Of a stretch of 64,000 bases of DNA, positions 7,248-46,721 are shown piece by piece. The notes beneath the pieces are model-generated. The model saw nothing but the letters and a program-made list of their open reading frames with translations, did no database searches and had not been told where the DNA came from. Position 1 is the first letter of the stretch; each line of letters begins with the position of its first letter. A program made the translations under genes and the position numbers. The DNA comes from Nitrosopumilaceae archaeon. Lineage in GTDB: Archaea > Thermoproteota > Nitrososphaeria > Nitrososphaerales > Nitrosopumilaceae. The stretch lies in contig CBDCCK010000002.1 in NCBI GenBank assembly GCA_965214835.1, positions 96,001 to 160,000 of the forward strand, given 5' to 3'.

Positions 7248-7254
7248 CCGGGTC

Positions 7255-7740: not shown

Positions 7741-7771
7741 TGCATTTCCTCCATTTTTTTCATCATGCCGG

Positions 7772-8894: not shown

Positions 8895-8901
8895 CTCCTT
8901 A

Positions 8902-11181
8902 TTATTTGTCGTTTCCAAGCCTTGCATCGGCGTCAAGCGCCAGTGCAAGCATCTTCTCTACATTTTCGGTGTCGGCGTTGCGGTTTGCCAGCAGCCAGAA
9001 CATCCTGCTTATGGTCTTGTCGCGTATCCCGAGCTCCCCGTGAAGGTACAGCATCTTGTGGCGCGACGTGACATAACTCAGGCACTCGCCGGAGTGCTCC
9101 TTCATGTTATTACTCATGACGTCTTTGATGTCGCAGTACTTGTCGGCGGACTTGCCGGTTCTGTCATACCAGGCAGTAGAGATCTTGTAGGGGATGCGCC
9201 TGGCGCTGAGGCACGCCTCCAGTTCAAAGAGGCGGTCACCGGTCTCGATGACGAGCAGCTTTTTGTCTGATTTGACAAGCTCTGCAAGCCTGGGCCAGTT
9301 ATGGAGTACAAGGACTATGTCCTTGCCGGCAGCAGGCATATGCGCAGGGAGCATCGGCCCCTCGCTTGTGACATACGCCGAGCCTTCGGCAGTCCTGATA
9401 AGATCGTCCTCCCGTATGCAGGAGCCGGAGAGCGCACTGGAGGGCTTGGTCAGGCAGTATCCGGTGTCCCAGCGCCCGAGGATTTTGCGCATGACAGGCA
9501 TCCTGCCGTTGTTTACGACGACAGTCATCCTGCCAACGTCTGCAACGCCCCTTCTCTCAGAGAGTACCACGCCTTTTTCCCCGGCCCTTTCCCTGTGGAA
9601 GTGGACTGGGACCTCGGTGACCGCAGGCGGCGCCATACGTTTGACTGCCAGGCCGTGCCTTTTGATGTACCCGTCAAGCGTCTCAATTCCAAGACCCGTG
9701 AACCTGTCCATCCAGACAGACGGATCATCGGGCCGGACGACCTCGATGCCGGGATCATGGCAGCGTACGGCATCGACCTTGGACTTTTCCATCTTTTCGG
9801 CTGCCAGGAACCGGCTGCCGCTGCAGAGTCCGAGCCTTGTGCGGCCGCCTCTGCTGTTACGAACCTGGTGTCTTGCGACTGCCAGGATCTCCTGCATCTG
9901 CTGATCGGACTCACTCCAGAGATTCTCGTCAATGCATGTCATCAGCGTCCGTTTTGGGTGGGAGAGATACTCCTCAAGCGTACCAACGCAGAACTGCTCT
10001 TTGAAGCATTTCTTGAATGCGGCATCAATGCCTGCGGTGATCCTTTTAGACGAGCCGTCGCTGAGCCTCTCCCGGTCAGGGGTAGGCGGGTACTTGCGCT
10101 CGTCAAGTATGTTGACAAACATCCTGGCGCAGTGGTATTTCAAGAAGCCGCCATAACCGTACTCGATTGGAATCCTTGCAAGAAACGTCTGCGCCGCAAA
10201 ATTGTAATGTGGGGTCTCGATTTTGCCGTTCTTCGTCCGTATGATTCTGAACACACAGGCAGCATCAAAGTCGTCATCGCCGAACTCAAAGACGTATGAT
10301 CCCAGAGACTGGTTGCCATTACAGGAGTTGAACAGGGGCTCGTCTTCCGCGCATCTTCCGGCCATCCCGGATATGGTTTCGGGCAGATAGGAGTGCGTTC
10401 CCTCCTCATACGTGTTGGCATACTCGGCACTGACGCGGGATCTGAGGTTCAGGATTGTGGGAACCCCGCTGAGTCGTGAGAGGAACTTTATCATGTCGCA
10501 TAGATGCACCATGTCGATCTTCTCGTACAGGGTGAGGCTTATCCTGGTTCCAAAGTGATCCATGTCAGGCTCCGGCAGCCCCGTCTGGAACCCCATCCCG
10601 TTCTTTCCCAGGACCGAGTACTTTTTGCCGGTCTCCCTAGAGTGGACGTCCATGATCATTATCTCTGACAAACACAGGTATGCGGCGCGTCCGAACCCGA
10701 ACTGCCCGTTCTCCGTTCCCTCAAAGTTGGTGGAGCGGCCAAGGACGGTATACACGTCGGTAAACGTCTCCCAGCTCATACCCATCGAGTCGATGCCCTC
10801 TATTGCCAGGCTGCGGTTTACAGGATCAAGGGTTATCTCTATGCGGGAGTCGGCGCCGTGATGTTTCATTGCGTGGCGGCACGCGCGGGCCTCGTTTGCG
10901 TACAGCTCCCGCAGGCCCGAACTGGCATGCTCGTACAGGTCGTGCGATATCCTCTGGATTACCACGTCCTCCTCCAGGGACGTCCTGATGAACCCGTCCT
11001 TTGTGCCGTCAGGCAGGGAGCCTGTACTGCCGGGGTTTGGGATAGGAAGCGGCTTTTCTGATATTATCTCCGGCTTGTAGTATTTTGTCCCGCTCAAGCC
11101 AGAGCAGTCATCAGAGTCACCCATCGTACGGCACCGGTCCGGATCGCGGGATCGTGGTGCGGCCAGGGGACTTTCCGTCAT
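8902..11181 (-). CDS. HtpG/Hsp90-like GHKL ATPase-domain protein (paralogue of 5100..7247)
   Basis: LRELYANEARA, DSMGMS, GQFGFGRAAY, GTRI; true start may lie further downstream. Confidence 0.8.
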   Translation of the reverse strand: MTESPLAAPRSRDPDRCRTMGDSDDCSGLSGTKYYKPEIISEKPLPIPNPGSTGSLPDGTKDGFIRTSLEEDVVIQRISHDLYEHASSGLRELYANEARACRHAMKHHGADSRIEITLDPVNRSLAIEGIDSMGMSWETFTDVYTVLGRSTNFEGTENGQFGFGRAAYLCLSEIMIMDVHSRETGKKYSVLGKNGMGFQTGLPEPDMDHFGTRISLTLYEKIDMVHLCDMIKFLSRLSGVPTILNLRSRVSAEYANTYEEGTHSYLPETISGMAGRCAEDEPLFNSCNGNQSLGSYVFEFGDDDFDAACVFRIIRTKNGKIETPHYNFAAQTFLARIPIEYGYGGFLKYHCARMFVNILDERKYPPTPDRERLSDGSSKRITAGIDAAFKKCFKEQFCVGTLEEYLSHPKRTLMTCIDENLWSESDQQMQEILAVARHQVRNSRGGRTRLGLCSGSRFLAAEKMEKSKVDAVRCHDPGIEVVRPDDPSVWMDRFTGLGIETLDGYIKRHGLAVKRMAPPAVTEVPVHFHRERAGEKGVVLSERRGVADVGRMTVVVNNGRMPVMRKILGRWDTGYCLTKPSSALSGSCIREDDLIRTAEGSAYVTSEGPMLPAHMPAAGKDIVLVLHNWPRLAELVKSDKKLLVIETGDRLFELEACLSARRIPYKISTAWYDRTGKSADKYCDIKDVMSNNMKEHSGECLSYVTSRHKMLYLHGELGIRDKTISRMFWLLANRNADTENVEKMLALALDADARLGNDK

Positions 11182-11346
11182 ATATGGTTGCTGTTTTCTG
11201 GTTCATAACATCATCTCCTTTGTTTTTTGAAATGGCGGCAGACATGCTGCCGGGACATCCGGTGCCGTGTGGCACTGGCTGATCCGGCAGGCGCGGCCGA
11301 CGCGCTGGAAGGGAGGAGTTCGTTGTGTATGAAACATTTCCTCACC

Positions 11347-11491
11347 TTCCATACATGCGCTGCAGCCGTCTGGTGGCTGTGGGCGCATGTTTCGGCCTTC
11401 CCCTTTTTCAGAGAAGGAGAAGGCCAACCCGGATTGCTACTCCGAGCGTTCCACATGACACGCAAAGGTGCCGTGGAACTCATCAGTGGAA
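11347..11491 (-). ncRNA. Type I hammerhead ribozyme variant with a large insertion (copy A)
   Basis: TTCCA-CTGATGA-[2 hairpins]-GGCCTTC..GAAGGCC-GAAA-CATGCGC..GCGCATG-TA-TGGAA. Confidence 0.65.
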
Positions 11492-11588
11492 TTTTCCCTT
11501 TTTGACTTGTGGCCGGCATGGATGCCGGACGGATTGGGCGCACCGCCGCCGCCGTCATGGCAATGGCCGGTGCTGGCTTGGCGGACAT

Positions 11589-12401
11589 TTACCTGTCTGC
11601 CACGTACCACAGGGTATTCCTGTGGCGGCCAGACATCGGCCACGGCATGCCGGATCGCGAAACCGTAACACCGCAGCCGGGTGCCTGCCAGCTGTCAAGC
11701 GTGAACCGGCCTATCCTTTCCGGTGCCTGTCCGTGATTTGCAGCCCGTGTCAGGTCTACTGTGACGCCGCTGCTGGTTACGACCATCGTGTCAATCCTGT
11801 CGCCAAACACGTCCTCAAAGAGGTGTCTGGTACGGGCCTCGTCGCACAGCTCGTAGTACAGGTTCACGTGGCGGCTGCCAAGTACCCAGTAGTCAAGCTT
11901 GTACAGGCCTATCACTTCAGGAATCCGCCGGTGGCCTGTCACGCGATGCAGCTTTTCAAGGAATTCCTCGGCAGAAGCAAACCCCCTGCTGGGAAGGTGA
12001 TCGATGCTGCCAGCCGGTTTCAGGGTTACATGGACGCCCCAGCCGCGTATGTCGATGTAGGTGCAGAGGGGGTTGTCGCCAAACTCGGCCTCAAAGAGGC
12101 GCCGGGCACAGGCCTTTATGTCGTCTATGACACGCGACCCTCCGGGTGCGGCTGGAACGCCGCACACCCTGCCGTGCCTGTCACGGACAAGCTCCGAGCC
12201 CGCTGGAACGTACATGCCTAGGTTGCAGCAGCCGTACACCTTTCTGCCGTATTTGATAAAGAGCGCGGCAGTGTTCTTTTTCAGGGCATGCTGCTTCCCA
12301 AGAAGTGAGCCTGCAGCGATACACTCGGCAGTATCCGGTACCGAGGTTGATGGCAGGAATTTGCCGTCATACATTGTCACTGTTTTTTGGTCCATGATCA
12401 T
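11589..12401 (-). CDS. QKTV-family hypothetical protein, copy 3
   Basis: MIMDQKTVTMYDGKFL... homologous N-terminus; AAGGAG RBS. Confidence 0.6.
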   Translation of the reverse strand: MIMDQKTVTMYDGKFLPSTSVPDTAECIAAGSLLGKQHALKKNTAALFIKYGRKVYGCCNLGMYVPAGSELVRDRHGRVCGVPAAPGGSRVIDDIKACARRLFEAEFGDNPLCTYIDIRGWGVHVTLKPAGSIDHLPSRGFASAEEFLEKLHRVTGHRRIPEVIGLYKLDYWVLGSRHVNLYYELCDEARTRHLFEDVFGDRIDTMVVTSSGVTVDLTRAANHGQAPERIGRFTLDSWQAPGCGVTVSRSGMPWPMSGRHRNTLWYVADR

Positions 12402-12529
12402 CTCCTTTTTTGCAGGTGCGGCAGTCACGCTGCCGGGACATCCGGTGCCGTGCGGCACTGGCTGATCCGGCAGGCGCGGCCGATGCGCTGGAAGGGAGGA
12501 GTCCGCTGTGTGTGAAACATTTCCTCACC

Positions 12530-12675
12530 TTCCATACATGCATCCACTGCCGTCTGACGGCTGTGGGTGCATGTTTCGACCTTCCCCTTTTTCAGGGACG
12601 GAGAAGGCCAACCCGGATTGCTGCTCCGAGCGTTCCACATGACACGCAAAGGTGCCGTGGAACTCATCAGTGGAA
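12530..12675 (-). ncRNA. Type I hammerhead ribozyme variant with a large insertion (copy B)
   Basis: Same core as copy A; stem III covaries (CATGCA/TGCATG versus CATGCG/CGCATG). Confidence 0.65.
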
Positions 12676-13080
12676 TTTTCCCTTTTGATTCATGACCGGC
12701 AGAGGCGCCGGTTCAGGCTGTCTGTTCTGGCGCGATGCCTGAATCATGGCACGCGCATCCGGACTGCACCATCCTGCGATGCGTCCGAGGTTTCCTATAC
12801 TGGAGGCGCACATGGCGCGCACCAGATCGACGCGGTCGTCCCGCGCAAGCGCGTTGAGAACGCGCACTGCGACGCGGGGGTCCACCCTGTTCTTATGGGT
12901 GACGCACCCGGCTACTGCCAGGGACGCGTTCCCGGAAAGGGACTTGCGCGCGCCCTGCCAGTTGTGGCCGCAGCAGGAATAGAACTCGGCTGCAAGGCCG
13001 GAGTGGCCGTTAATGACCAGGGCGTTGATGATGCCCGATACGTTCTTTGCGCTTAGCAATGCCAGGTGGTGCTGCAGCAG

Positions 13081-14976
13081 TTATACTGCAGGCATGGCAC
13101 TGTGAACCGGGCCCTGGCGGCCGTCCTGCGGAAGCGTTCTGCGACTGGAACGGCCGGCATGACTGCCGCGCTTGCCGCCGGCACCACTGCCGGAGCCCCT
13201 GGACTTTAGGAGGGTCCTGGCAAGACCGGCCTCCGTGCCTTTGCGGTCCACCGATTCCAGGGCAGATGACAGCTGCCTGAGGGATCCGGTGTCAAGCGAC
13301 CTCATCGAGGCGAGGACGTCGACTGTGGAGGAGTGTGTGTCCGGATAATCCGAATCCTCCGGCAGGGGCAGATCCATTCCGGACTCTGCCACATATGCGC
13401 CGTACTCCTTGACAAGCCTGTCGACTGCGCCGTTTTTGTGGCCACTTGCGGGCCTGCCGGCAGAATCCCTTGCGGGCCTGCCGCCGAGGATGCGGTATGC
13501 AAGCTTTGCCTCGGTTCCGCGACAGCCGGAGTTACGGAGATCGGCTGCCAGCCTCTTCAGGGAGTCCCTCTCAAGGCTTCTCAGTGATGCCATCGTCTCC
13601 TCGATGGAAGACTCGACGTCAGGGTATGCGTACTCGAACTCTGACTCTGTAGAGTCGATTCCGGATTCCGTCACATACTTGCTGCATTCGGCAATCGCTG
13701 CCGCGTTGGCATTCATTGCAGAGCCGTGGCGGCTGCCTGCAGCGGTCTTTTTGGCCCTGCCGCCTGCCGACTGCTTTCGGGCTGCCGGCGCGGTGCCTTG
13801 GCATCTGGCATGCGCGATTATGGCAGACGGATCAAAGGTTCTTTTGCCGCCCAGTCCTGCCTTTGACTTGGCGCGACTGAGAGTGCCCCATCCGGAGCGG
13901 CCGTCAGCAGAAGATGACGGCGACCGGTTACTGCGACTTTTGGATCTTGCCGCCATAGGCTGGTGCACCCTGCGTACGGGGAGCTCCTCCGGAGAGTCGT
14001 CCATGACCTCGGAGTAGAACTGTACCAGTGAGGCCTGCTCGTCGAGCTCAGAGGCGCTTGCCTTGAGATACTCGGCAGTTGCGGCGTCCTTTTCTTCTGC
14101 CAGTATGCCGGAGAACGTCTCGCGAACCTCATCAGACATCTCTGCCACGCATGCAAGGCTGCACACGCTGTCCTGCACGGCAGGATCAGCCGCCGTTGAC
14201 ACGACGGAAGGCTCGCAGGTCTTGACAGACATCCTGTCAAACTTGGATCCGGTACTGCTGATCTTTCTCCAGGATCCACTGCGGTCGCGGATTGCAAACG
14301 CTATCTCCGCTTTCCTGCAGCTGTCAATGTATTGCTGCCACGGTGATGCGGAGCGTTCGCGCCTTGTAAGCAGTGCCTGGCCGGCCGGCACCATTCCGTC
14401 AACGCCTGATGCGTGAGACGGGGTATCGGCATGAGATGACACGTGGGAGTGCACATCGTTGATGCCTGCAAGGACGCCGGTGTCGGTGACTGTGCTCACG
14501 GAGCCGTCATCCATGCGGGCCGCAAGGAGGGACAATCGCCTGTGACAGTCCTCCATGGCGTAGATCTCGCCGGGACACCCGTCGTCTGCAGGGTTCAGTG
14601 CAGATGATACCGTCTCATCGAGCATGCACTCTGCTGTAAGCTCGGTCCACTCGTCGCACATTGACTGTGCAAGCGATTTGGCCCGGGCTATCCTTACGTG
14701 GCGCGGTTCCCGCATCCTGACGGGGTTGCCAGTGTCCACAAGGATTATACTCCCGTTGGACATGACTGCGACAATCTCGCCACGTGACATGAACATATGC
14801 GTTTTACCGCCGCCTGCACCGGACGTCTTGTAGTAGACGGCCCCGCGGACGTTGGCGGATCTTCTCACCTGTCGGCAGACGCTGTTCACGTCGTGTTTTT
14901 TGCCGTCGACACTTATCGCGTCGAGGCGCGTATCTGTTTGTTTTGGTTTTTGTTTTTGTTTTTGTATTTGACTCAT
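13081..14976 (-). CDS. Large hypothetical protein with a duplicated C-terminal module
   Basis: About 630-aa ORF from MSQIQKQKQK; repeated YVxESG...YPD...ASxRSL...GTEA module. Confidence 0.65.
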   Translation of the reverse strand: MSQIQKQKQKPKQTDTRLDAISVDGKKHDVNSVCRQVRRSANVRGAVYYKTSGAGGGKTHMFMSRGEIVAVMSNGSIILVDTGNPVRMREPRHVRIARAKSLAQSMCDEWTELTAECMLDETVSSALNPADDGCPGEIYAMEDCHRRLSLLAARMDDGSVSTVTDTGVLAGINDVHSHVSSHADTPSHASGVDGMVPAGQALLTRRERSASPWQQYIDSCRKAEIAFAIRDRSGSWRKISSTGSKFDRMSVKTCEPSVVSTAADPAVQDSVCSLACVAEMSDEVRETFSGILAEEKDAATAEYLKASASELDEQASLVQFYSEVMDDSPEELPVRRVHQPMAARSKSRSNRSPSSSADGRSGWGTLSRAKSKAGLGGKRTFDPSAIIAHARCQGTAPAARKQSAGGRAKKTAAGSRHGSAMNANAAAIAECSKYVTESGIDSTESEFEYAYPDVESSIEETMASLRSLERDSLKRLAADLRNSGCRGTEAKLAYRILGGRPARDSAGRPASGHKNGAVDRLVKEYGAYVAESGMDLPLPEDSDYPDTHSSTVDVLASMRSLDTGSLRQLSSALESVDRKGTEAGLARTLLKSRGSGSGAGGKRGSHAGRSSRRTLPQDGRQGPVHSAMPAV

Positions 14977-15160
14977 TAAAACACCTTTTTTTGGTTGTCT
15001 CTTGGCACTGTCGTCATGACAGTGCAACGGCACGGCATTCTTTCCCGCGCCCGGTGTGATGCTGTAAAAAAACACATGATATGGGCCAGGTGACATCCGG
15101 CCCAAATGACACATGATAGAATCTTCATGCGCCGCTATACTGCGGAAAACTGTTCTCGGA

Positions 15161-15230
15161 CTCCCACACCTGCCTGCCTGTCAGCCTACAATAGTAGGTA
15201 ATGCAGGATTTGGAGGCCGCTGTCAGGTCA
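15161..15230 (-). ncRNA. Unknown structured motif X, copy 1
   Basis: TGACCTG..CTCC-AAAT-CCTGC-ATTA-hairpin-CTGACAGGCAG-GCAGG-TGTG-GGAG, following a T-tract. Confidence 0.6.
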
Positions 15231-15314
15231 CGAAAAAATTGGGGTTTGGACCGTCTACATGCGGCCCGTGTTCAGATACGCACAGTTGGGACATGCCGTC
15301 ACATGCCTCCTGCC

Positions 15315-15379
15315 TTCCACACCTGCCTGCCTGTCAGCCCTTTCGGGTATTGCAGGGTTTGAAAACAGTTGCCAGGTCA
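15315..15379 (-). ncRNA. Unknown structured motif X, copy 2
   Basis: Same conserved blocks with a shorter apical hairpin (CCC-GAAA-GGG). Confidence 0.6.
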
Positions 15380-15410
15380 CTAAAAATGTTGGATGCGTGC
15401 AGCCCCGAGG

Positions 15411-15758
15411 TCAGTTGCTCTTTCTCAGATACCCGGCGATCTCCCTGAGAATTGCCGTGATGTCATCCAGCTTGTCCAGCTTGGTGTCGATTCGATCCAG
15501 CTTGTCCAGCTTGGTGTTAATCCGGTCAAACCGCTTGTGTATCTTGGAGACCTCGTCATGTGTAAGAAGCAGCATCGTAATCCCTACGATCGCAGGCATT
15601 ATAAAGACTCCGTACACGGGCCACTCTCTTAGCAGCTCCAGCACGTCAGATTCCCCGCCAAACATGAGGAAGAATCCGAACAGAAGCATGCTTACAAATA
15701 CGACTCCCATCGGTCTTCTGAAGAGGAGCTGTACCTTTGCAGTAACGTGTTTGTTCAT
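15411..15758 (-). CDS. Two-TM protein with LDKLD heptad coiled-coil tail
   Basis: Hydrophobic segments then RFDRINTKLDKLDRIDTKLDKLD; tandem duplicate of 15877..16191. Confidence 0.75.
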   Translation of the reverse strand: MNKHVTAKVQLLFRRPMGVVFVSMLLFGFFLMFGGESDVLELLREWPVYGVFIMPAIVGITMLLLTHDEVSKIHKRFDRINTKLDKLDRIDTKLDKLDDITAILREIAGYLRKSN

Positions 15759-15776
15759 GTTGTTTGTTCCTTCGGA

Positions 15777-15845
15777 CTCCCACACCTGCCTGCCTGTCAG
15801 CCTACAAAGTAGGTAATGCAGGATTTGGAGACCGCTGTCAGGTCA
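15777..15845 (-). ncRNA. Unknown structured motif X, copy 3
   Basis: Ends about 19 nt upstream of the ATG at 15758. Confidence 0.6.
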
Positions 15846-15876
15846 CGAAAAAATGTTGGATGCGTTGCCCTTGATG

Positions 15877-16191
15877 TCAGTCCTTCTTCAGATACCCTGC
15901 GATTTCCCGCAGAACGGCGGTAATCTCGTCAAGCTTGTCAAGCTTGGTGTCAATCCGGTCAAACCGCTTGTGTATCTTGGAGACCTCGTCATGTGTAAGA
16001 AGCAGCATCGTAATCCCTACGATCGCAGGCATTATAAAGACTCCGTACACGGGCCACTCTCTTAGCAGCTCCAGCACGTCGGACTCCCCGCCAAACATGA
16101 GGAAGAATCCGAACAGAAGCATGCTTACAAATACGACTCCCATCGGTCTTCTGAAGAGGAGCTGTACCTTTGCAGTAACGTGTTTGTTCAT
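15877..16191 (-). CDS. Two-TM protein with LDKLD heptad tail (one repeat fewer)
   Basis: Nearly identical to 15411..15758. Confidence 0.75.
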   Translation of the reverse strand: MNKHVTAKVQLLFRRPMGVVFVSMLLFGFFLMFGGESDVLELLREWPVYGVFIMPAIVGITMLLLTHDEVSKIHKRFDRIDTKLDKLDEITAVLREIAGYLKKD

Positions 16192-16209
16192 GTTGTTTGT
16201 TCCTTCGGA

Positions 16210-16277
16210 CTCCCACACCTGCCTGCCTGTCAGCCTACAAAGTAGGTAATGCAGGATTTGGAGCCCTTGTCAGGTCA
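16210..16277 (-). ncRNA. Unknown structured motif X, copy 4
   Basis: Ends about 19 nt upstream of the ATG at 16191. Confidence 0.6.
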
Positions 16278-16312
16278 CTAAAAAATTTATGGTGTTTGAA
16301 GGAACAGGATTC

Positions 16313-16741
16313 CTACGGCACCCGCCTGTCCATGGCCGACTTTATGCCTCCCAGAACAGACAGTATTTCCTTTAGCACGACGCGCGTCATCTCGCCGTCG
16401 TCTTTGAGTGTCTTGCGCGTCATCTCGCCGTCGTCTTTGAGTGTCTTGCGCGTCATCTCGCCGTCCTTTCTGATGGCCTCCGTGAGTGTCTTGCGCGTCA
16501 TCTCGCCGTCCTTTCTGATGGTATCCTTGATTCCGGATGCGACATCGGCCGTAAGGAATGACATTATCAGTCCTACGAAGCCGGCGATAATAAAGGCTAT
16601 GCCCTCGCCGATCATGTCGATTCCGTCATTGATATGGGAGGACACGGCCATGACGACGCCGGTGCCGGTTATCCATCCGAACACGATGTTGGCGCGCCTG
16701 ATGATCCTGTCCTTGATTCTCTTCCTCATGTTCACGTTCAT
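16313..16741 (-). CDS. Two-TM protein with DGEMTRKTL repeats
   Basis: Two hydrophobic helices followed by four DGEMTR repeats. Confidence 0.7.
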   Translation of the reverse strand: MNVNMRKRIKDRIIRRANIVFGWITGTGVVMAVSSHINDGIDMIGEGIAFIIAGFVGLIMSFLTADVASGIKDTIRKDGEMTRKTLTEAIRKDGEMTRKTLKDDGEMTRKTLKDDGEMTRVVLKEILSVLGGIKSAMDRRVP

Positions 16742-16775
16742 TTTTTCTCCATTTGGCGTCTCACTCGCCGTGCAT

Positions 16776-16852
16776 TTCCCACACCGGCCTGCCTGTCAGC
16801 CCCGTGCCGCAATGGGACGGGATGATGCCGGTTTGGAATGGTTGGCAGGTCA
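16776..16852 (-). ncRNA. Unknown structured motif X, copy 5 (covarying)
   Basis: CCTGC/GCAGG becomes CCGGC/GCCGG and CTCC/GGAG becomes TTCC/GGAA, while the loop blocks are unchanged. Confidence 0.65.
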
Positions 16853-16883
16853 TAAAAAAAATAAAGGGGTGTTACGGCCTTTT

Positions 16884-17555
16884 TCAGCAGCCGTATGACT
16901 GTGCCCACGCTTCTCGCGCGAACTCGCTTTTTGTGCAGAACCTTTCCAGTATCTCGGCATGCCCGGAGGTGACAAGCATCTCGTTGATCGAGACCGCATC
17001 GGAGCTGTAATGACAGATCACCTTTGCTATCACCCTGTCATACGAGCCGCCGGGCTGGCCGTCGTCCACGTCGTATACCGCGACGCTTCCGACCGGGCAC
17101 TTGGAGCTGACGTATGCCGTGGCATCCTTGTACCCGAACTCCCCCCTCTCGGGGGTGTTGACTAGTGCAAGCCTGACCCGCTTGCCCTCAACGTCCAGCG
17201 TGTCGCCGTCGATGATCCTCGTTACCGCACCGGCCTTCAGGCCGATTACCGATGACAGCCCGGTGCCGCTCTGGTTGAGATACACCTGGTGACGCCCAAG
17301 GGGGTCTGCAGGCCTGTCCTTGTCGTCTGCCTGCTGGCTGTCTGGCGTGCTGTGCCAGTTGCCGGATCCGCGGCGGCTTTCTGCTGCGCCTGTGAACTGG
17401 GAATCAACGGCATGGCCTATGCTGTCAACAACGCTGTCCACGCCGCCTGAAACGACTGGCGTGAAATGGGCCGAGATTGCCGGCGCCACAACGATGATGG
17501 CCATCATAAGCACCATTCCGATGATGATGGTTCCTGTTGTTCTTAGTTTGGTCAT
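16884..17555 (-). CDS. Membrane-anchored thermonuclease (SNase family)
   Basis: RIIDGDTL, RVRLALVNTPE, YDRVIA and INEMLVTSGHA motifs; N-terminal TM helix. Confidence 0.9.
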   Translation of the reverse strand: MTKLRTTGTIIIGMVLMMAIIVVAPAISAHFTPVVSGGVDSVVDSIGHAVDSQFTGAAESRRGSGNWHSTPDSQQADDKDRPADPLGRHQVYLNQSGTGLSSVIGLKAGAVTRIIDGDTLDVEGKRVRLALVNTPERGEFGYKDATAYVSSKCPVGSVAVYDVDDGQPGGSYDRVIAKVICHYSSDAVSINEMLVTSGHAEILERFCTKSEFAREAWAQSYGC

Positions 17556-17623
17556 AGACGCCCAAAAATTTGGCGTTTCGGGTCTGCATAGCCCAGTCGG
17601 GCTGACCCAATCCTCAGTATGAC
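17551..17623 (-). ncRNA. Type I hammerhead ribozyme overlapping the thermonuclease start codon
   Basis: GTCATA-CTGAGGA-TT-GGGTC..GACCC-GAAA-CGCC..GGCG-TC-TATGAC. Confidence 0.88.
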
Positions 17624-17673
17624 TGCGTTGAGTGGAAATGAAAACAAGAAAAAAGAAGGGGCGGGCGTGAGCC

Positions 17674-17919
17674 CTAGTGGAAGTCGCATCGCCGGCGGTG
17701 AAAACCGTCCCAGCGGCAGCGGGGGCATGGCAGAATCTCCGGATCGCTCAGTACCCACCGGGCAATCCAGAGATAATCGTACCTGATCAGCCAGCGTACG
17801 GCCATCCGCATGCCGCCCCTGCGGACTGCGGAGCCAAAGCACCTGAACTCCTTGAGGATGTTCCAGAGCACGCGCGCCGAGACGTGCGTGTATACGCTGC
17901 TGTTTTTGCTAGAAGTCAT
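17674..17919 (-). CDS. Small Cys-containing hypothetical protein
   Basis: ATG lies in hammerhead stem I; CPRC...CDFH end shared with 18262..18636. Confidence 0.6.
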   Translation of the reverse strand: MTSSKNSSVYTHVSARVLWNILKEFRCFGSAVRRGGMRMAVRWLIRYDYLWIARWVLSDPEILPCPRCRWDGFHRRRCDFH

Positions 17920-17991
17920 AGACGCCCAAAAGTTTGGCGTTTCGGGCTTGCATGAACCCCTGGAGGGGGCTGGCCCAATCGTCAGTATGAC
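17915..17991 (-). ncRNA. Type I hammerhead ribozyme overlapping a start codon
   Basis: GTCATA-CTGACGA-TT-GGGC..GCCC-GAAA-CGCC..GGCG-TC-TATGAC. Confidence 0.88.
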
Positions 17992-18063
17992 CGTTGAGTG
18001 AAAGGAAGAAAAAGAATGGGTGGGGAGGACTTGAGGATCCTCCCGGATCGAGGAGCGAATGAC

Positions 18064-18192
18064 TCACCGGTCTGCCGGTACAGTACGTCCCAGGTTCCTG
18101 AGATAACATTCGTCCTTGAAATCTGCTATGGCTGCCAGCTCATCGGAGGTCTCAAAGTCCTCTGCTGCGCCTGTATCATAGATGTAATCCAT
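18064..18192 (-). CDS. 42-aa acidic micropeptide (MDYIY family), copy 1
   Basis: MDYIYDTGAAEDFETSDELAAIADFKDECYLRNLGRTVPADR; frame and length conserved across three full copies. Confidence 0.55.
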   Translation of the reverse strand: MDYIYDTGAAEDFETSDELAAIADFKDECYLRNLGRTVPADR

Positions 18193-18261
18193 GAGTGTAA
18201 TGTGGAAATTCTTGCAAAGTGTAAATTGTAAAAAGAAAAAAGGGGGTTGTGACTGCGGCCG

Positions 18262-18636
18262 CTAATGGAAGTTACACCACGTCCAGTACGAGCCCCAGTT
18301 CTCATCTTCCTGAACCCAGACTTTGTAACAATGGGGACACTTCACGTCAAACGGCGCCTCACGAGCCAATCGGAGAACCTCCCGGGTGCAATCCCAGAAA
18401 CGGCGCCATTTGGTTCTCAGGCTACAACCATAGCCATACCAGAGGCGCAGTTCGCAAAGGCGTTCTGCATGGCGCAGGGTACAACCGTGCAGACATGCAC
18501 ACGACTCAGGCCTGAAATTACGGTAGAGTTGATAGCAGACGCGCACCCACAGGTGTGAATAGATGCCTCTTTTTTTCACACGAGGGTATTTTGCCAGTGC
18601 TGTCTTTTCGTCGTAATAGATGCTTTTCGAAGTCAT
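18262..18636 (-). CDS. Cys-rich hypothetical protein
   Basis: Starts MTSKSIYY at the hammerhead; CPHC...CNFH end. Confidence 0.65.
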   Translation of the reverse strand: MTSKSIYYDEKTALAKYPRVKKRGIYSHLWVRVCYQLYRNFRPESCACLHGCTLRHAERLCELRLWYGYGCSLRTKWRRFWDCTREVLRLAREAPFDVKCPHCYKVWVQEDENWGSYWTWCNFH

Positions 18637-18707
18637 AGACGCCCAAAAATCTGGCGTTTCGGGCTTGCGTGAGCCCCTTGCGGGACTGGCCCAATCATCA
18701 GTATGAC
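18632..18707 (-). ncRNA. Type I hammerhead ribozyme overlapping a start codon
   Basis: GTCATA-CTGATGA-TT-GGGC..GCCC-GAAA-CGCC..GGCG-TC-TATGAC. Confidence 0.9.
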
Positions 18708-18790
18708 CGTTGAGTGAAAGTAAGAAGAAGGAAAAAAGAATGGGAGGGGAGGCCATGAGAGGGCCATCCCCGATCAAAGGTTCGAACGGC

Positions 18791-18919
18791 TCACCGGTAT
18801 ACCGGTACGGTACGCCCCAGGTTCCGGAGGTAGCATTCATCCTTGAAATCTGCTATGGCTGCCAGCTCATCGGACTTCTCAAGGTCCTCTGCTGCGCCTG
18901 TTTCATAGATGTAATCCAT
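18791..18919 (-). CDS. MDYIY micropeptide, copy 2
   Basis: MDYIYETGAAEDLEKSDELAAIADFKDECYLRNLGRTVPVYR. Confidence 0.55.
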   Translation of the reverse strand: MDYIYETGAAEDLEKSDELAAIADFKDECYLRNLGRTVPVYR

Positions 18920-18978
18920 GAGCGTAATGTGGAAATTCTTGTAAAGTGTAAATTGTAAAAAGAAAAAAAAAGGGGGGA

Positions 18979-19533
18979 TCAGTCTCTGCCGAAGAGACTG
19001 TTCCATTGTGCCAGGAGGCGACCAAAGACAGGCCACGAATACCCGTCGTCGTGACAAGGATGCGCGCCATACCTTCCAACGAAGAGATCGGCCCATACCT
19101 CGCTGGCAAAACTCTCACGATTCATGAGTCCATCGGCCATCTCCCGATGGCAGTGCCTCGTGAGCGCAGAGAGGTTCATGCCGTGTTTGATGGCGTGCCC
19201 TATCCACTCGGGATCGCCGGAGCGCGGCAGCAGGTTGGCCTCGTGATGCCCAAGCTCGTGGTAGAGTGTGTTCCTGACACACGCGCCGCAGTGCTGAATG
19301 CCGCAGATGGCAATCTCCATTGAGGAAGGGTCATAGTACCCGTAACAGTCAGGTCTCGAATCTTCCACGTAAAGGAGGCAGACGCCGCGCCTCAGGTACG
19401 ACGGTATGCGAAAATACTCCTCACGGATCATCTCGACTTCGTGGACGTACGGGCGCATCTCCGCGCAGACGGACACTGCCGTCTGTGGTTGCTCGCGGGG
19501 TCGGCTATTGAAGTGGTGAACAGATGTGTTCAT
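18979..19533 (-). CDS. Zincin-like HExxH metallopeptidase
   Basis: GYYDP...YHELGH...SEVWAD (gluzincin-type third ligand). Confidence 0.75.
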   Translation of the reverse strand: MNTSVHHFNSRPREQPQTAVSVCAEMRPYVHEVEMIREEYFRIPSYLRRGVCLLYVEDSRPDCYGYYDPSSMEIAICGIQHCGACVRNTLYHELGHHEANLLPRSGDPEWIGHAIKHGMNLSALTRHCHREMADGLMNRESFASEVWADLFVGRYGAHPCHDDGYSWPVFGRLLAQWNSLFGRD

Positions 19534-19601
19534 TGTAATGTGTAACATGGAAAAAATGGGGGATGGGATGCGACAAACAGCCGCATCCGGATGAGGGGAC
19601 T

Positions 19602-19691
19602 TTAGTCCCAGATTTCCCGGTCTTCGGGATCCTCTTCGAACTCGCGGATTATGCGAGGGTAAAAGGGTGTCTTTTTCTTTTTGGAATTCAT
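19602..19691 (-). CDS. Possible 29-aa micropeptide (MNSKKKK...)
   Basis: Short ORF followed by hairpins and a T-tract; identical copy at 21411..21500. Confidence 0.3.
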   Translation of the reverse strand: MNSKKKKTPFYPRIIREFEEDPEDREIWD

Positions 19692-19817
19692 TACTGAAAT
19701 TTCTGGAATCAGGAAATGCCAAAGTCCTCTGCTGCGCCTGTTTCATAGATGTAATCCATGAGCGTAATGTGGAAATTCTTGTAAAGTGTAAATTGTAAAA
19801 AGAAAAAAAAAGGGGGA

Positions 19818-20375
19818 TCAGTCTCTGCCGAAGAGACTGTTCCATTTGGGGAGCAGGCGCCTGTAGGTGTCCCACGAATAGTGGAAACAGCTCCATCTGG
19901 ATCCGTGCCTTCCAACGAAGAACTCTGCAAAGACTTCCCCTGCGAATGTGTGCGTGTCCATCTCGCCGCGCTCCATCTTCTGATGGCAGAACTCAGTGTA
20001 CCACGAAAGGCTCCTGCCAAACTCAAGGGATGCAGCAGTCCAGTCCGGGTGTGCCCAGAGCTTGTGCGTCTTGGAGCAGTGGTGCCCGAGCTCATGGTAG
20101 ATGAGAGACCTTACGCATCTGCGACAGTGCTGCAATCCACAGACGGTGATCGTCTGATCCGTCCAACAATAGAACCCTCCACCTTCCGGTCTGGGCCCTG
20201 CAATGTGCAGACAGCGGATACCGCGCCTGAGATCAGGGCGGACGCGAAAGTACTCCTTGCGGATTATTCTGACAGCATGCTCATGTACGAGCATTTCCTT
20301 GCTGACAGTGAACTTCGGCGTGTAGCGCTCCGGAGAGCGTCGGCATTTGAAGATGTTTGTAAACATGTTCACCAT
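19818..20375 (-). CDS. Zincin-like HExxH metallopeptidase (divergent paralogue)
   Basis: GFYCW...YHELGH...GEVFAEFF; ends WNSLFGRD like its paralogues. Confidence 0.75.
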   Translation of the reverse strand: MVNMFTNIFKCRRSPERYTPKFTVSKEMLVHEHAVRIIRKEYFRVRPDLRRGIRCLHIAGPRPEGGGFYCWTDQTITVCGLQHCRRCVRSLIYHELGHHCSKTHKLWAHPDWTAASLEFGRSLSWYTEFCHQKMERGEMDTHTFAGEVFAEFFVGRHGSRWSCFHYSWDTYRRLLPKWNSLFGRD

Positions 20376-20600
20376 AATGTAGAAAAATCGGGGTATCGTA
20401 GTGAGAGGTCTTGAAAAAACCTGTCACTCTGCGTTCTAGACTTTGGATTCGCGGAACCTGCGGCGGCCGGGACACTTCACACCAGCGCCGGTGCCACAGG
20501 GATTGTTGGAGGTTGTGATTCTGGAAAATCCTGAAAAACTGAAAGAAAAAGAATGGGTGGGGAGGACTTGAGGATCCTCCCGGATCGAGGAGCGAATGAC

Positions 20601-20729
20601 TCACCGGCTGGCTGGTACGGTACGTCCCAGGTTCCTGAGATAACATTCGTCCTTGAAATCTGCTATGGCTGCCAGCTCATCGGAGGTCTCAAAGTCCTCT
20701 GCTGCGCCTGTTTCATAGATGTAATCCAT
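20601..20729 (-). CDS. MDYIY micropeptide, copy 4 (copy 3 at 19709..19759 is truncated)
   Basis: MDYIYETGAAEDFETSDELAAIADFKDECYLRNLGRTVPASR. Confidence 0.55.
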   Translation of the reverse strand: MDYIYETGAAEDFETSDELAAIADFKDECYLRNLGRTVPASR

Positions 20730-20787
20730 GAGTGTAATGTGGAAATTCTTGTAAAGTGTAAATTGTAAAAAGAAAAAAAGGGGTGGA

Positions 20788-21342
20788 TCAGTCTCCGCCG
20801 AAGAGACTGTTCCATTGTGCCAGGAGGCGACCAAAGACAGGCCACGAATACCCGTCGTCGTGACAAGGATGCGCGCCATACCTTCCAACGAAGAGCTCGG
20901 CCCATACCTCGCTGGCAAAACTCTCACGATTCATGAGTCCATCGGCCATCTCCCGATGGCAGTGCCTCGTGAGCGCAGAGAGGTTCATGCCGTGTTTGAT
21001 GGCGTGCCCTATCCACTCGGGATCGCCGGAGCGCGGCAGCATGTTGGCCTCGTGATGCCCAAGCTCGTGGTAGAGTGTGTTCCTGACACACGCGCCGCAG
21101 TGCTGAATGCCGCAGATGGCAATCTCCATTGAGGAAGGGTCATAGTACCCGTAACAGTCAGGTCTCGAATCTTCCACGTAAAGGAGGCAGACGCCGCGCC
21201 TCAGGTACGACGGTGTGCGAAAATACTCCTCACGGATCATCTCGACTTCGTGGACGTACGGGCGCATCTCCGCGCAGACGGACACTGCCGTCTGTGGTTG
21301 CTCGCGGGGTCGGCTATTGAAGTGGTGAACAGATGTGTTCAT
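20788..21342 (-). CDS. Zincin-like HExxH metallopeptidase (near-identical to 18979..19533)
   Basis: Duplicated at a 1809-bp offset; YHELGH motif. Confidence 0.75.
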   Translation of the reverse strand: MNTSVHHFNSRPREQPQTAVSVCAEMRPYVHEVEMIREEYFRTPSYLRRGVCLLYVEDSRPDCYGYYDPSSMEIAICGIQHCGACVRNTLYHELGHHEANMLPRSGDPEWIGHAIKHGMNLSALTRHCHREMADGLMNRESFASEVWAELFVGRYGAHPCHDDGYSWPVFGRLLAQWNSLFGGD

Positions 21343-21577
21343 TGTAATGTGTAACATGGAAAAAATGGGGGATGGGATGCGACAAACAGCCGCATCCGGA
21401 TGAGGGGACTTTAGTCCCAGATTTCCCGGTCTTCGGGATCCTCTTCGAACTCGCGGATTATGCGAGGGTAAAAGGGTGTCTTTTTCTTTTTGGAATTCAT
21501 TACTGAAATTTCTGGAATCAGGAAATGCCAAAGTCGGCGGAGTTATATGGTGGGATAATTGTACAGGAAATGGTGAT

Positions 21578-23172
21578 GAGGGCTCAGACTGCTCCCTGTC
21601 TTCATTGCATCGCAGTGATGCTCAGAATGAATGGTGTCTCATCATCGCCCTCGTTTGTGTAGCAGAATAATGCGGGAATCTAATCGGCAAAGCAGGTTGG
21701 AGTTATATTACAGAATAATGATTCAGGAAATGGTGATGAGGGCTCAGACAACGCCAGATTCATCATGAATCAGACTGGGGGTGTCTCATCATCGCCCTCG
21801 TTTGTGTAGCAGAATAATGCGGGAATTTTCAAAGTCAGAATGGCTGGAGTTATATGGTGGAGTGTGGTACGAAACATGGTGATGAGGGCTCAGATGTCAC
21901 GGCTTTCTTCATAGCCACGACAGGCTCGGAGATTATTGCTGATCTCGGCCCTTTGTTCTTCATCATCGCCCTCGTTTGTGTAGCAGAATAATGCGGGAAT
22001 TTTCAAAGTCAGAATGGCTGGAGTTATATGGTGGAGTGTGGTACGAAACATGGTGATGAGGGCTCAGACAACGCCAGATTCATCATGAATCAGACTGTGT
22101 GTGTCTCATCATCGCCCTCGTTTGTGTAGCAGAATAATGCGGGAATTTTCAAAGTTGGAATGGCTGGAGTTATATGGTGGAGTGTGGTACGAAACATGGT
22201 GATGAGGGCTCAGACAACGCCAGATTCATCATGAATCAGACTGTTGGTGTCTCATCATCGCCCTCGTTTGTACAGCATAATTTGCAGAAGTTTCTGCTTC
22301 AAAGTTGGCTGGAGTTATATGGTGGAGTGTGGTACGAAACATGGTGATGAGGGCTCAGACTGATCTCTGTCGTCATTGCATCGCAGTGATGCTCAGTATG
22401 AATGGTGTCTCATCATCGCCCTCGTTTGTGTAGCGGAATAATGCGGGAATCTAATCGGCAAAGCAGGTTGGAGTTATATTACAGAATAATGATTCAGGAA
22501 ATGGTGATGAGGGCTCAGATAGGTAGCTGTCTTCATTCACGAAGTCAGAATAACAGGCTGTCATCATCGCCCTCGTCTGTGTAGCGGAACAATACGGGAA
22601 TCTCGGCGGCAAATCAGGTTGGAGTTATATGGTGGGATGATAATTCAGGAAATGGTGATGAGGGCTCAGACTGACTCGACCGTCATTGCATCACAATGAT
22701 GCTCCGGATGAATGGAACTCATCATCGCCCTTGTTTGTGTAGCGGAATAATACGAAAATCAAAAGTTAGAATGGCTGAAGTTATATGGTGGAGTGTGGTA
22801 CGAAACATGGTGATGAGGGCTCAGAATGCTAACTGTCTTCATTCGTGAAGTCAGTATAACAGGCTGTCATCATCGCCCTCGTTTGTGTAGCAGAATAATG
22901 CCGGAATGACCGGGTTGGAGTTATATTGCAGAATGATGATTCGGGAAATGGTGATGAGGGCTCAGACCTATAGCTGTCTTCATTCGTGAAGTCAGAATGA
23001 ATGGAACTCATCATCGCCCTCGTTTGTGTAGCAGAATAATGCGGGAATCTAATCGGCAAAGCAGGTTGGAGTTATATTGTGGAATGATAATTCAGGAAAT
23101 GGTGATGAGGGCTCAGATAGGTAGCTGTCTTCATTCGTGAAGTCAGAATGAATGGAACTCATCATCGCCCTC
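21578..23172 (-). ncRNA. Tandem array of 11 box C/D guide sRNAs
   Basis: Each unit reads GAGGGCG-ATGATGA(C)-guide-CTGA(D')-loop-ATGAAGA/ATGATGA/ATGACGR(C')-guide-CTGA(D)-GCCCTC. Units: 21578-21652, 21738-21799, 21884-21973, 22058-22119, 22204-22265, 22349-22423, 22509-22574, 22660-22732, 22815-22880, 22956-23021, 23107-23172. Confidence 0.9.
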
Positions 23173-23271
23173 GTTTGTGCAGCGTAATAATGCCGGGATG
23201 GATCTGTATCTCAATCAAGTCGGACAGTCAGTTGCAGGGGGGTATAATGCTCAAAAAATGGCTGGTTTTGC

Positions 23272-23509
23272 CGTCCTCGAATTCGGGGACGCTTGGCGGA
23301 TTTTTCGGCGTTTTTGAAGAGTTGTCTTAAAGATAGAGATTTTTCCTAATGTTGCAGTTCTGTTTTGTTTGGGATTATTCCCGGTTTTTTGTGCCTACCT
23401 CTGGATCTTTTGTATTAAGGACGTTTTGCGGGGGTATACTATCCAGTTTTTGGGGGCGTCCCCGATACCGGGGACGGAGGGGCAAAAGCGTCCCCGAATT
23501 CGGGGACGC
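23272..23509. promoter_or_regulatory. Three palindromic operator/centromere-like sites
   Basis: Perfect 22-bp palindrome GCGTCCCCGAATTCGGGGACGC at 23488..23509; variants at 23272..23292 and 23456..23476. Confidence 0.65.
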
Positions 23510-23547: not shown

Positions 23548-24459
23548 ATGGGAAGAAGCACAGAGTCCACGCCGGCCGGCGGGAAGGCGGCATCTCTAGG
23601 AGGCGCCGACATCGCCGTCGGGCTGGACATCGGGACAGGATCAGTCAAGGTCGCGACCAGAAGGCACCGCTTCAAGTTCCCGTCGGTCGTGGCAAGGGGC
23701 CGGGCAATATCCGTCGACGGCTCGGAGCCCGAGTCCGTGTTTGTCGGGGAGCAGGCAATGCGGCAGGAGCACGTCAGGTCCATGCTGCTCAAGACGCCAG
23801 TATACCGGGGGGTGCCGACTGCGATGGACGACTATATCGAGCTGGTGCGGCACGCCCTCGACCTGGTGATCAGGGCCGACAGGAACACGGTCTGGCACGG
23901 GCCGTCAGGATACTCGGAGATGGCAATAGTGGCAGGCATCCCGTACAACTCGCGGGACAGGGTGGAGGCCATAAAGAAGGCAGTGCAGGCCGAGTTTGCC
24001 CCGCACAGGTTCGGCGTGATGTTCCAGGCCAGGGCAACGCTTGAAAACGAGGGGATGAGGGACGGAATAGTGTGCCATATCGGCCACGGGACGACAGAGA
24101 TGATGGCGGTAATCGGCGGGAACACCGCATACGGGGAGACCGTGCCTCACGGCGTGGGAGACGTCGTCATGGCAGTCACGGGATCCAGGACAGGATACAC
24201 CGACCACTCGGTGTTTGCTTCGGGCTCGCAGCTGCTGGCAGAAAACAGGCGCATACTTGCCGGCCACATAGCCGACAGCCTTGAGAAGATAGTCATAGAC
24301 TATCCGGGGCTGGACGTGGTGTTTGCAGGCGGCGGGGCGCTTGTACCGAAGCTGGTAGGCGAGATACGGGTCAGGACGTCGGGGACTGTCAGGACGGCAG
24401 ACGAGCCGGTGTTTTCAAACGCCCTGGGAATGCTGAAGAAGGCGACGGGGCTGTGCTGA
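23548..24459 (+). CDS. ParM/StbA-like actin-family ATPase
   Basis: GLDIGTGSVK (phosphate 1), HIGHGTTE (phosphate 2), AGGGA (adenosine), NALG (connect 2). Confidence 0.85.
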   Translation: MGRSTESTPAGGKAASLGGADIAVGLDIGTGSVKVATRRHRFKFPSVVARGRAISVDGSEPESVFVGEQAMRQEHVRSMLLKTPVYRGVPTAMDDYIELVRHALDLVIRADRNTVWHGPSGYSEMAIVAGIPYNSRDRVEAIKKAVQAEFAPHRFGVMFQARATLENEGMRDGIVCHIGHGTTEMMAVIGGNTAYGETVPHGVGDVVMAVTGSRTGYTDHSVFASGSQLLAENRRILAGHIADSLEKIVIDYPGLDVVFAGGGALVPKLVGEIRVRTSGTVRTADEPVFSNALGMLKKATGLC

Positions 24460-24707
24460 CGCCGCGAGACCGCCGGTACCTGGAGTCCCCGGGATCGCTG
24501 TCAGGCGAGGCAAGGAGGAAGGCAAGGTACAGGATGAGGGCTAGGATTGCGGCAGTGATGGATGATGCGCGGCTGCTCATGAGCAATGCCGAGACGGTGA
24601 GGCGGGAGTTTGGAATCGACGTGCGCGGGATCCTGCAGGACGGGGCTGAGGAGGCGCAACAGGAAAAGGAAGCCGTGGAGGCCGGAGGGGATCCGGATCT
24701 GCTGTAG
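24453..24707 (+). CDS. Small basic protein, candidate partition adaptor
   Basis: Overlaps the end of the ParM-like gene; basic helical N-terminus and acidic tail. Confidence 0.55.
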   Translation: MLTPRDRRYLESPGSLSGEARRKARYRMRARIAAVMDDARLLMSNAETVRREFGIDVRGILQDGAEEAQQEKEAVEAGGDPDLL

Positions 24708-40367: not shown

Positions 40368-40593
40368 ACTGCAATGCCGACAGGTTCGGCCATTGCCTGT
40401 GCGTGACAGGCATCTTTTTTGTACAGCCCTTGCGTTTTTCGCACCACACATGCCGCGATGGCATGCGTCCTCACACTCACATATAATACATTTTCAAGCG
40501 CCTCCTCACAGCGGTGGTACCCAGGATCCCTCGCATGCCACGCCTGCCGGTGACACCAGAGACATACGTGACGATCTGACGCATATGCAGGAT

Positions 40594-46709: not shown

Positions 46710-46721
46710 CGGCCGGGCCCC

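Follow-up and report, generated by a model that had tools for sequence, protein, structure and literature searches.

What would a conjugative element gain from placing, at the head of a block of genes, an array of RNAs that seem to be aimed at the ribosome, followed by ribozymes and another structured RNA? We addressed this question in a stretch of 64,000 nucleotides (the window) on a 3.2-Mb chromosome contig (C2) of an archaeon of the family Nitrosopumilaceae, with the focus on positions 11,182 to 23,271. Judged from its sequence, this region is the head of a block of genes read in one direction within an integrated conjugative element, and the system is real, conserved and surprising. The reading that we favour, and to which we assign roughly an even chance, is that the region forms the promoter-proximal section of a conserved operon in an integrative and conjugative element (ICE), whose box C/D RNAs would methylate translation centres and throttle host protein synthesis when the operon is on. 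This reading draws directly on the C/D array and its guide pairing, the hammerhead cores and their spacing from ATG codons, the covariation of a structured RNA that we call motif X, the conserved order of these parts, one promoter-like site and the Nop5 and fibrillarin of the host.

The array and the best-matched guides lie as follows.

21579..23170, minus strand: eleven box C/D small RNA (sRNA) genes, with C, D', C' and D boxes and a 5-6 bp terminal stem (from boxes and Rfam)
22661..23170, minus strand: units 1, 2 and 4, in which the D' guide forms 11 Watson-Crick pairs with 23S rRNA (A1969 predicted as the site)
22510..22878, minus strand: units 3 and 5, in which the D' guide forms 10 Watson-Crick pairs with the peptidyl-transferase centre (A2451 predicted as the site)
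21739..22263 (a range that includes unit 9), minus strand: units 7, 8 and 10, in which the D guide forms 10 pairs with 16S helix 31 (C970 predicted as the site)
21885-21971, minus strand: unit 9, in which the D guide spans the tRNA-Asp anticodon with 10 pairs

The eleven units repeat with a period of 141-174. All of them have the C and D boxes and the terminal stem, with variant inner boxes in some; one unit exceeds the cut-off of the Rfam family snoPyro_CD (45.7 bits), and the remaining units match C/D families below cut-off. By these marks, the units are bona fide C/D-type RNAs. The methylation site of such an RNA is the target base that pairs with the fifth base upstream of the D or D' box; rRNA positions are given in E. 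coli numbering, through alignment to the annotated operon. Nine of the eleven units have one guide with at least 10 perfect pairs to rRNA or tRNA, unit 11 reaches nine pairs plus a wobble and unit 6 eight, and both of these form 8 pairs in the A1969 register. In most units, one guide is matched and the other unmatched. Among the 18 distinct guides, five had at least 10 perfect rRNA pairs, compared to 0.18 expected, a result reached in none of 5,000 shuffles and by none of 18 guides in a sense control. When the guides were collapsed to families and tRNAs were added, four of 14 still reached 10 pairs (0.21 expected; 0 of 20,000 shuffles). The matches to host rRNA are thus far above chance, in agreement with an earlier note on this DNA which had held that the guides act on the ribosome. 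The unit 8 D' guide also pairs at 11 of 12 bases with a tRNA-like gene at G000:C2:87939; other tRNA-like genes lie at G000:C2:65293, 66616, 176244 and 182875, and a tRNA-Arg(CCT) is carried on the element at window positions 52333-52419.

The host has one Nop5 (the single PF01798 match in the genome) and one fibrillarin, encoded by adjacent genes about 240 kb from the array, and the genome yielded just three other C/D-like genes. A C/D RNA at G000:C2:1642789, whose flanks differ and whose guide matches 23S position 2441, could be a genuine guide of the host. The C/D genes at C2:1121384 and C2:1620637 were considered as host housekeeping genes and dropped, as their flanks match the IS6-linked family described below. 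In peptide-bond formation, the 2'-OH of A2451 is the critical group, as stated in a review (PMC13215694). A term search of the sRNA table of seven archaea in supplement 1 of PMC4644070 returned no A2451-pairing heptamer.

Relatives of the element were picked by the ParM protein alone; among 400 other family genomes, 8 gave 10 matches in all, which represent nine distinct elements. On the strand divergent from ParM, a C/D RNA occurs within 1.4 kb in seven of the nine, motif X in seven (and weakly in an eighth) and a hammerhead in seven, with all three in five. The elements G004 and G019, found through their RNAs, have the same RNA mix, and nuclease and membrane genes come next in most relatives. 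In the window, every open reading frame (ORF) with a good coding score from 327 to 21531, and every C/D unit, hammerhead and motif X copy, lies on the minus strand, divergent from the ParM-like gene at 23548; the plus-strand ORFs of at least 90 residues in 327-21531 have coding scores of at most 0.23 and overlap minus-strand genes. The minus-strand unit divergent from a ParM-like locus that the earlier note had described is therefore borne out, and the co-occurrence check that it had proposed found the components in the same order and on the same strand in relatives. Since they co-occur behind one promoter-like site, the notion of a single unit is favoured over that of unlinked cassettes, each with a promoter of its own.

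The guide registers are also conserved: A1969 is kept in four genomes and A2451 in five, with the A2451 register of units 3 and 5 recurring in G392, G345, G370 and G396. A relaxed scan for sites with at least 9 pairs across elements, scored against the rRNA of this genome, gave U966, C970, C1407, G1494, C750, G1918, A1969, G2117 and A2451. Of 251 family genomes, 3 have the A1969 guide pattern and 6 that of A2451; among the latter matches, one is a chance match inside a gene, one is the known G392 array and three are stand-alone C/D RNAs. As these patterns are so rare in the family, the A1969 and A2451 guides are not housekeeping guides. The A2451 match in G406 and free-register matches in G128, G157 and G257 were not C/D RNAs on inspection, and all three matches of the A2451 pattern in metagenome contigs lacked a C/D unit. 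In the G392 array (L057 19850-20000 and L058 1-700), two kinds of C/D unit with differing terminal stems alternate, and both A2451 and C970 guides are present.

A single start for the whole unit is suggested by the region between the array and ParM.

23410..23427, minus strand: promoter-like site with a transcription factor B recognition element (BRE) and TATA-type box at the head of the unit, conserved in an alignment of seven intergenic regions
23272-23291, 23457-23476 and 23489-23508, no strand assigned: three 20-bp palindromes, one within the array leader

The pattern of the head site occurs once in the whole of contig C2 and once each in eight of the nine ParM-selected elements, with a variant in the ninth; because it is single in both, one regulated start is favoured. 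The aligned intergenic regions have this promoter-like site towards the array and a TATA-like site towards ParM. In relatives, palindromes lie at the same places with sequences that differ by element, one being downstream of the array promoter; the three palindromes of the window are likely to be repressor or ParR operator sites. A promoter model built from 50 tRNA upstream regions was blunt, in that the head site scored below 7 and A-rich antisense tracts scored. A scan for bacterial sigma-70 promoters and terminators gave chance levels (11 vs 8.0 and 7 vs 12.4). Four relatives share a conserved sequence block ("motif Y") after the head promoter that is not found in the window (L063 ~10390-10480, L224 ~250-330 bases behind the site, L070 and L104).

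Downstream of the array, two further kinds of structured RNA were found.

18631..18708, minus strand: type I hammerhead 1, expected to cut one base ahead of the ATG of ORF 18262-18636
17914..17992, minus strand: type I hammerhead 2, expected to cut one base ahead of the ATG of ORF 17674-17919
17551..17624, minus strand: type I hammerhead 3, expected to cut one base ahead of the nuclease-gene ATG
12530..12675, with a second copy at 11346-11491, minus strand: predicted branched hammerhead variant, core intact, stem II replaced by several hairpins
16768-16857, 16202-16282, 15769-15850, 15306-15384 and 15153-15235, minus strand: five copies of motif X, with three covarying helices

The three compact hammerheads have the CUGANGA and GAAA core, an NUH site and stems I-III. 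Across 12 compact hammerheads from six sources, the predicted cut lies before an ATG in all 12, by one base in 11 and by two bases in one, while the stem I sequences vary. Stem I includes the start codon, and therefore cleavage would yield a leaderless mRNA, in line with the ribozyme-released mRNAs supposed by the earlier note. The two branched hammerheads keep the core and have a stem II reduced to one base pair; related forms occur in G004, G213, G382 and G392. The Rfam hammerhead models did not match any of these copies.

A tract of at least five T precedes eight of the 10 non-C/D RNAs, lying 17-25 nt before the compact hammerheads and 3-4 nt before motif X. The nearest T-tract to the branched hammerheads is more than 2 kb off, and the array linkers contain no T5 tract. 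Thus, the pattern of T-tract, structured RNA and short gene that the earlier note had read throughout the region fits those eight RNAs and fails for the two branched hammerheads and inside the array.

The loops of motif X hardly vary, and a possible pseudoknot, whose pairs never vary, would join its 5' end to an internal loop. In an alignment fitted to the tested structure, 87.5% of cells were paired and 172 two-sided changes were counted, compared to 53.9 after shuffling (0 of 500 shuffles); the structure also outperformed all slid controls. None of the five copies matched Rfam, down to E 1. Among 151 genomes from across the order, the motif turned up in 3, each of them a member of the family, and the five matches of its pattern in viral contigs all lacked the full motif. 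Counts of G-U and C-A pairs (14 vs 18) do not fix its strand. The genes behind motif X have leaders of 22-38 nt. In G019, C/D RNAs are closely followed by hammerheads and closely preceded by motif X, and this layout suggests that both serve as cutting or end-forming units. Termination at U-tracts and exonuclease-resistant RNAs are generally known, and with these in mind the most probable role of motif X is to create or protect a 5' end that follows a U-tract, acting either as a ribozyme or as a barrier to exonucleases.

Together, these features suggest how the operon may work. An element-encoded repressor would hold it off in a carrier, and the operon would fire briefly after transfer into a repressor-free cell. 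The transcript would then be cut up: hammerheads would produce the 5' ends of leaderless mRNAs as well as the 3' ends of C/D RNAs, and motif X would form or guard those 5' ends that directly follow U-tracts. The C/D RNAs would probably load onto host Nop5, L7Ae and fibrillarin, of which Nop5 and fibrillarin are the host proteins identified here, and methylation at 23S A2451 and A1969, 16S C970 and the tRNA-Asp anticodon would damage new ribosomes and a tRNA. The outcome would be a general slowdown of translation rather than one that spares element mRNAs. Mis-targeted guides can be toxic in yeast. A viral precedent is the small nucleolar RNA v-snoRNA1 of Epstein-Barr virus (EBV), which lowers host translation via rRNA methylation, according to the available part of PMC13597479.

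Several observations weigh against this reading. Two of the nine elements (G213 and G314) have no C/D RNAs, and 12 of the 18 window guides have fewer than 10 perfect pairs (8 or fewer) to any rRNA or tRNA. The peptidyl-transferase centre and helices 68-71 are also where ordinary archaeal guides cluster, native guides of hyperthermophiles come within 2 nt of A1969 and 1 nt of C970, and a stand-alone sRNA in G310 has its peptidyl-transferase guide shifted by one base, to A2450. In other related loci, 9 of 42 guides had at least 9 pairs, compared to 2.0 expected, which speaks for the reading, but these guides were scored against the rRNA of this genome and come from kin that are not independent. 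The sense strand carries 26 tracts of at least five T between 15.0 and 23.3 kb, including one before the first unit, and an intact single precursor is hard to square with them. In the tRNA-based promoter model, two of the T-tracts that precede motif X reach scores comparable to those of tRNA promoters (8.5 and 10.0, with a tRNA median of 10.0).

The stand-alone C/D RNAs bear on an alternative. Those with common flanks sit directly before IS6-type transposases, and one is accompanied by a divergent MazE/AbrB-family gene; among 16 proteins scanned, five transposase ORFs exceeded the Pfam cut-off and one fell below it. Twelve of 24 stand-alone RNAs have a guide with at least 10 pairs, in a set without a shuffle control, and their targets are A2451, A1969, 16S U1498 and the tRNA-Asp and tRNA-Ala anticodons. 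The IS6-linked loci (L235, L236, L238, L038, L055, L061 and G000:C2:1121384 and 1620637) include guides to 16S helix 44, and often have a small divergent gene and an upstream methyltransferase. These sister RNAs would suit an RNA toxin kept under a repressor, which would penalise the loss of a repressor or of the partition locus, or would abort an infection by a virus, rather than acting after transfer, a reading that we consider unlikely but not negligible. It would account for sister guides to A2451, anticodon positions 35/36 and 16S C1496/U1498, for the MazE/AbrB-family neighbour and for palindromes between and behind the two promoter-like sites. However, no antidote came to light, loss of the element would remove toxin and repressor alike, and the array heads an operon with nuclease, membrane and ATPase genes.

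Somewhat less probable still is an action without methylation, in which the RNAs would soak up host C/D proteins or L7Ae as decoys, or stall rRNA folding as antisense RNAs, with the IS6 leaders serving as gates on transposase translation. The eleven tandem copies, the unmatched guide in most units and the small number of other C/D-like genes in the genome are consistent with a decoy. A sponge, however, needs no rRNA match, yet the matches exceed chance by far and keep one register between genomes, and the array units do not lie in a gene leader; gating of transposase translation would account for neither the matches nor the arrays.

The earlier note had raised the possibility that translation is biased towards element transcripts. 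In this form, guides would remodel ribosomes to favour the ribozyme-released leaderless mRNAs of the element, which we judge to be quite unlikely. The guides and the leaderless-mRNA hammerheads do share one operon, and the targets at 16S U966-G971, C1407 and G1494-U1498 surround the P and decoding sites where start selection occurs. However, A2451 serves every mRNA, anticodon targets cannot discriminate between mRNAs either, and the genes behind motif X have leaders. Leaderless mRNAs with 5'-OH ends also form weaker initiation complexes in the related archaeon Saccharolobus, in the available part of PMC11698992. Because these sites serve every mRNA and a 5'-OH end is a handicap for leaderless initiation, the proposed bias is not supported.

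That the array is benign cargo, consisting of captured ordinary C/D genes which fine-tune ribosomes, each cassette having its own promoter and being duplicated by drift, is very unlikely. Native guides do cluster in the same helices, local duplications are recent, and an ATATAA hexamer occurs in every array linker. These hexamers, however, have no purine-rich upstream element and score at most 7.5, the array keeps a fixed position behind ParM in seven of nine elements, and the 2'-OH of A2451 is catalytic (PMC13215694, in the part available). Least credible, and largely refuted, is a TIGR (tandem interspaced guide RNA) stem-loop array guiding an element-encoded Nop-domain protein to DNA: its tandem stem-loop units with two 10-13 nt spacers between C/D boxes resemble those in the available part of PMC12045711, yet the sole Nop domain in the genome is the distant one adjoining fibrillarin, with none among the scanned element ORFs, paired 8-mer DNA targets in its own genome number zero for nine of the eleven units and one and two for the others, the guides match rRNA, and a TIGR-Tas identity was ruled out because there is no Tas gene beside the array and no two-spacer opposite-strand DNA site.

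The methylation reading places the array in an operon whose remaining genes, and the divergent partition-like locus, are as follows.

23548..24707, plus strand: ParM-like actin and small ParR-like ORF, divergent (family and homology matches)
21411..21500, with a second copy at 19602-19691, minus strand: 29-aa basic/acidic peptide, found in three related elements
20788-21357, 19818-20375 and 18979-19548, minus strand: three HExxH zincin-like ORFs, local duplicates (predicted from the motif)
20601-20729, 18791-18919 and 18064-18192, minus strand: 42-aa acidic peptide, three copies
18262-18636, minus strand: ORF behind hammerhead 1
17674-17919, minus strand: ORF behind hammerhead 2
16884..17555, minus strand: staphylococcal-nuclease-family gene with a hydrophobic N-terminus, kept in related elements
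15411..16741, minus strand: three small membrane/coiled-coil genes, each after a motif X copy; homologs follow motif X in most relatives
13081..14976, minus strand: 631-aa ORF of no known family, with a weak homolog in G004
12667-13059 and 11589-12401, minus strand: two conserved ORFs flanking a branched hammerhead
5100..11181, minus strand: two HSP90/GHKL-like ATPases and a YubB-like gene, continuing the block

The ParR-like label is a putative one, given by position and size. The earlier note had regarded YubB-like proteins, zincin peptidases and small acidic proteins as signs of a leading region, and each of these was found in part. The YubB-like gene exists, with a PF18406 match just above cut-off, but lies at 7772-8434, outside the range in which it had been placed. 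The zincin-like ORFs have the HExxH motif; however, they gave no Pfam, NCBIfam or fold match, their AlphaFold model is of low confidence (pLDDT 47), and the sole homolog retrieved was the protein itself. The acidic protein is present as the three 42-aa copies, but neither it nor the zincins had a match in the 32 related loci searched, so that both look like local cargo. Their cassettes have a hairpin and T-tract behind and no known RNA in front, and a hairpin cluster at 20416-20525 had no match among relatives. ORFs 17674-17919 and 18262-18636 are rich in Cys, Trp and Arg, with one CxxC and a C-x-F-H end, a low coding score and no homolog found. An Atlas search with the membrane protein gave only leads below 0.9.

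The window lies inside an element of about 190 kb, whose housekeeping flanks are NurA-HerA-Mre11-Rad50 and NadA. Its ORFs encode PolB, ribonucleotide reductase, primase, ParB, DUF932, methyltransferases, pilus genes and VirD4-like and VirB4-like ATPases (43713..48563, minus strand; protein family matches). The VirB4 and VirD4 ATPases, the pilus genes, a weakly matched tyrosine integrase (tyrosine recombinase, E 1e-3, below cut-off) and the chromosomal flanks identify it as an ICE. The oriT that the earlier note had asked for was not located, a query with one candidate oriT region gave no match, and no relaxase family matched among the scanned element ORFs. One 14-bp direct repeat between the element ends, sought as an attachment site, was no better than chance. 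The region was present in contigs of four of four runs, which shows presence only, and among named public records that carry the same RNA motif the labels are Nitrosopumilaceae, Nitrosopumilus or Thaumarchaeota and, in one case, just "bacterium".

The VirD4-like ATPase (43713-46709) has 998 residues, relatives matching about the first 720 and the rest being a C-terminal extension; a TBP-like gene (window 42422-43057) adjoins VirB4/VirD4 in relatives too. The element also holds a short CRISPR array (39966-40369, CRISPR-DR16 match, period 73), a type I-G Cas3 fragment (34077-35261) and, at 25940-25990, a high-copy short repeat with a depth far above its flanks and many loose ends, likely the end of a miniature inverted-repeat transposable element. 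A second island at G000:C2:2748235-2799095 has ParM, TraG-like, pilus ATPase and PolB homologs, and C/D RNA, hammerhead and motif X were all absent from the 40 kb scanned there.

Prokaryotic C/D RNAs have so far been treated as housekeeping guides. We tentatively propose, as something that may well prove wrong, that conjugative elements and IS6 transposons of Nitrosopumilaceae carry a protein-free, reprogrammable toxin, in which fibrillarin would be turned on the 2'-OH of A2451, the decoding centre and anticodons, with the arrays on a repressor-gated transcript cut by hammerheads and by motif X, a new ribozyme or nuclease-blocking fold. If true, guides to A2451 and anticodons on mobile DNA would mean that RNA-guided methylation serves as a weapon in archaea, a parallel to a herpesvirus, and would give a first concrete picture of how an archaeal conjugative element establishes itself in a new host. 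There would also be a natural use of hammerheads for leaderless mRNAs, and a new class of structured RNA. In the literature searched, which excluded most subscription papers, we found no C/D arrays on archaeal conjugative elements, no natural A2451 guides and no hammerheads that release leaderless mRNAs.

In comparison with known systems, archaeal box C/D sRNAs (RF00095 clan; the available parts of PMC4644070, PMC6009581 and PMC7994747) share the boxes, 10-13 nt guides, terminal stem and complementarity to rRNA and tRNA near functional centres. Unlike them, the units described here are borne on an element, arrayed, rare in the family and aimed at the predicted A2451 and anticodon positions, and about two thirds of their guides have no 10-base match. 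TIGR arrays, as far as PMC12045711 was available, have in common tandem stem-loops, two spacers between C/D motifs and a place on mobile DNA, whereas here no Tas protein is adjacent, there is no tandem DNA target and the spacers pair with rRNA. The compact hammerheads share the full catalytic core and stems I-III with known type I hammerheads, but their stem I takes in the start codon, and the two further copies have a branched stem II. Bacterial conjugative-plasmid leading regions share co-directional small genes, nearby methyltransferases, a nuclease, YubB-like and DUF932 genes (PMC12282955, in part); they are defined by an oriT and single-strand promoters, neither of which was found in this element, and RNA guides or ribozymes are absent from the passages describing them. 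The element fits thaumarchaeal ICEs because of its VirB4/VirD4 and pilus genes, and because those ICEs too have no recognisable relaxase; the available text of PMC6563490 gives them VirB4, VirD4, a pilus ATPase and membrane protein, a tyrosine recombinase and ParB, all in common with the element, and a median of 64 kb compared to about 190 kb here. The words "sRNA", "ribozyme" and "ParM" occur zero times in that text, and the ParM-like locus is this element's. The closest working analogue is EBV v-snoRNA1 (PMC13597479, in part), in which a C/D guide from a mobile element, a host methyltransferase and lowered translation come together: there it is one guide in a eukaryotic virus, and here an eleven-unit array in a ribozyme-punctuated operon of an archaeal conjugative element, with predicted sites that include A2451.

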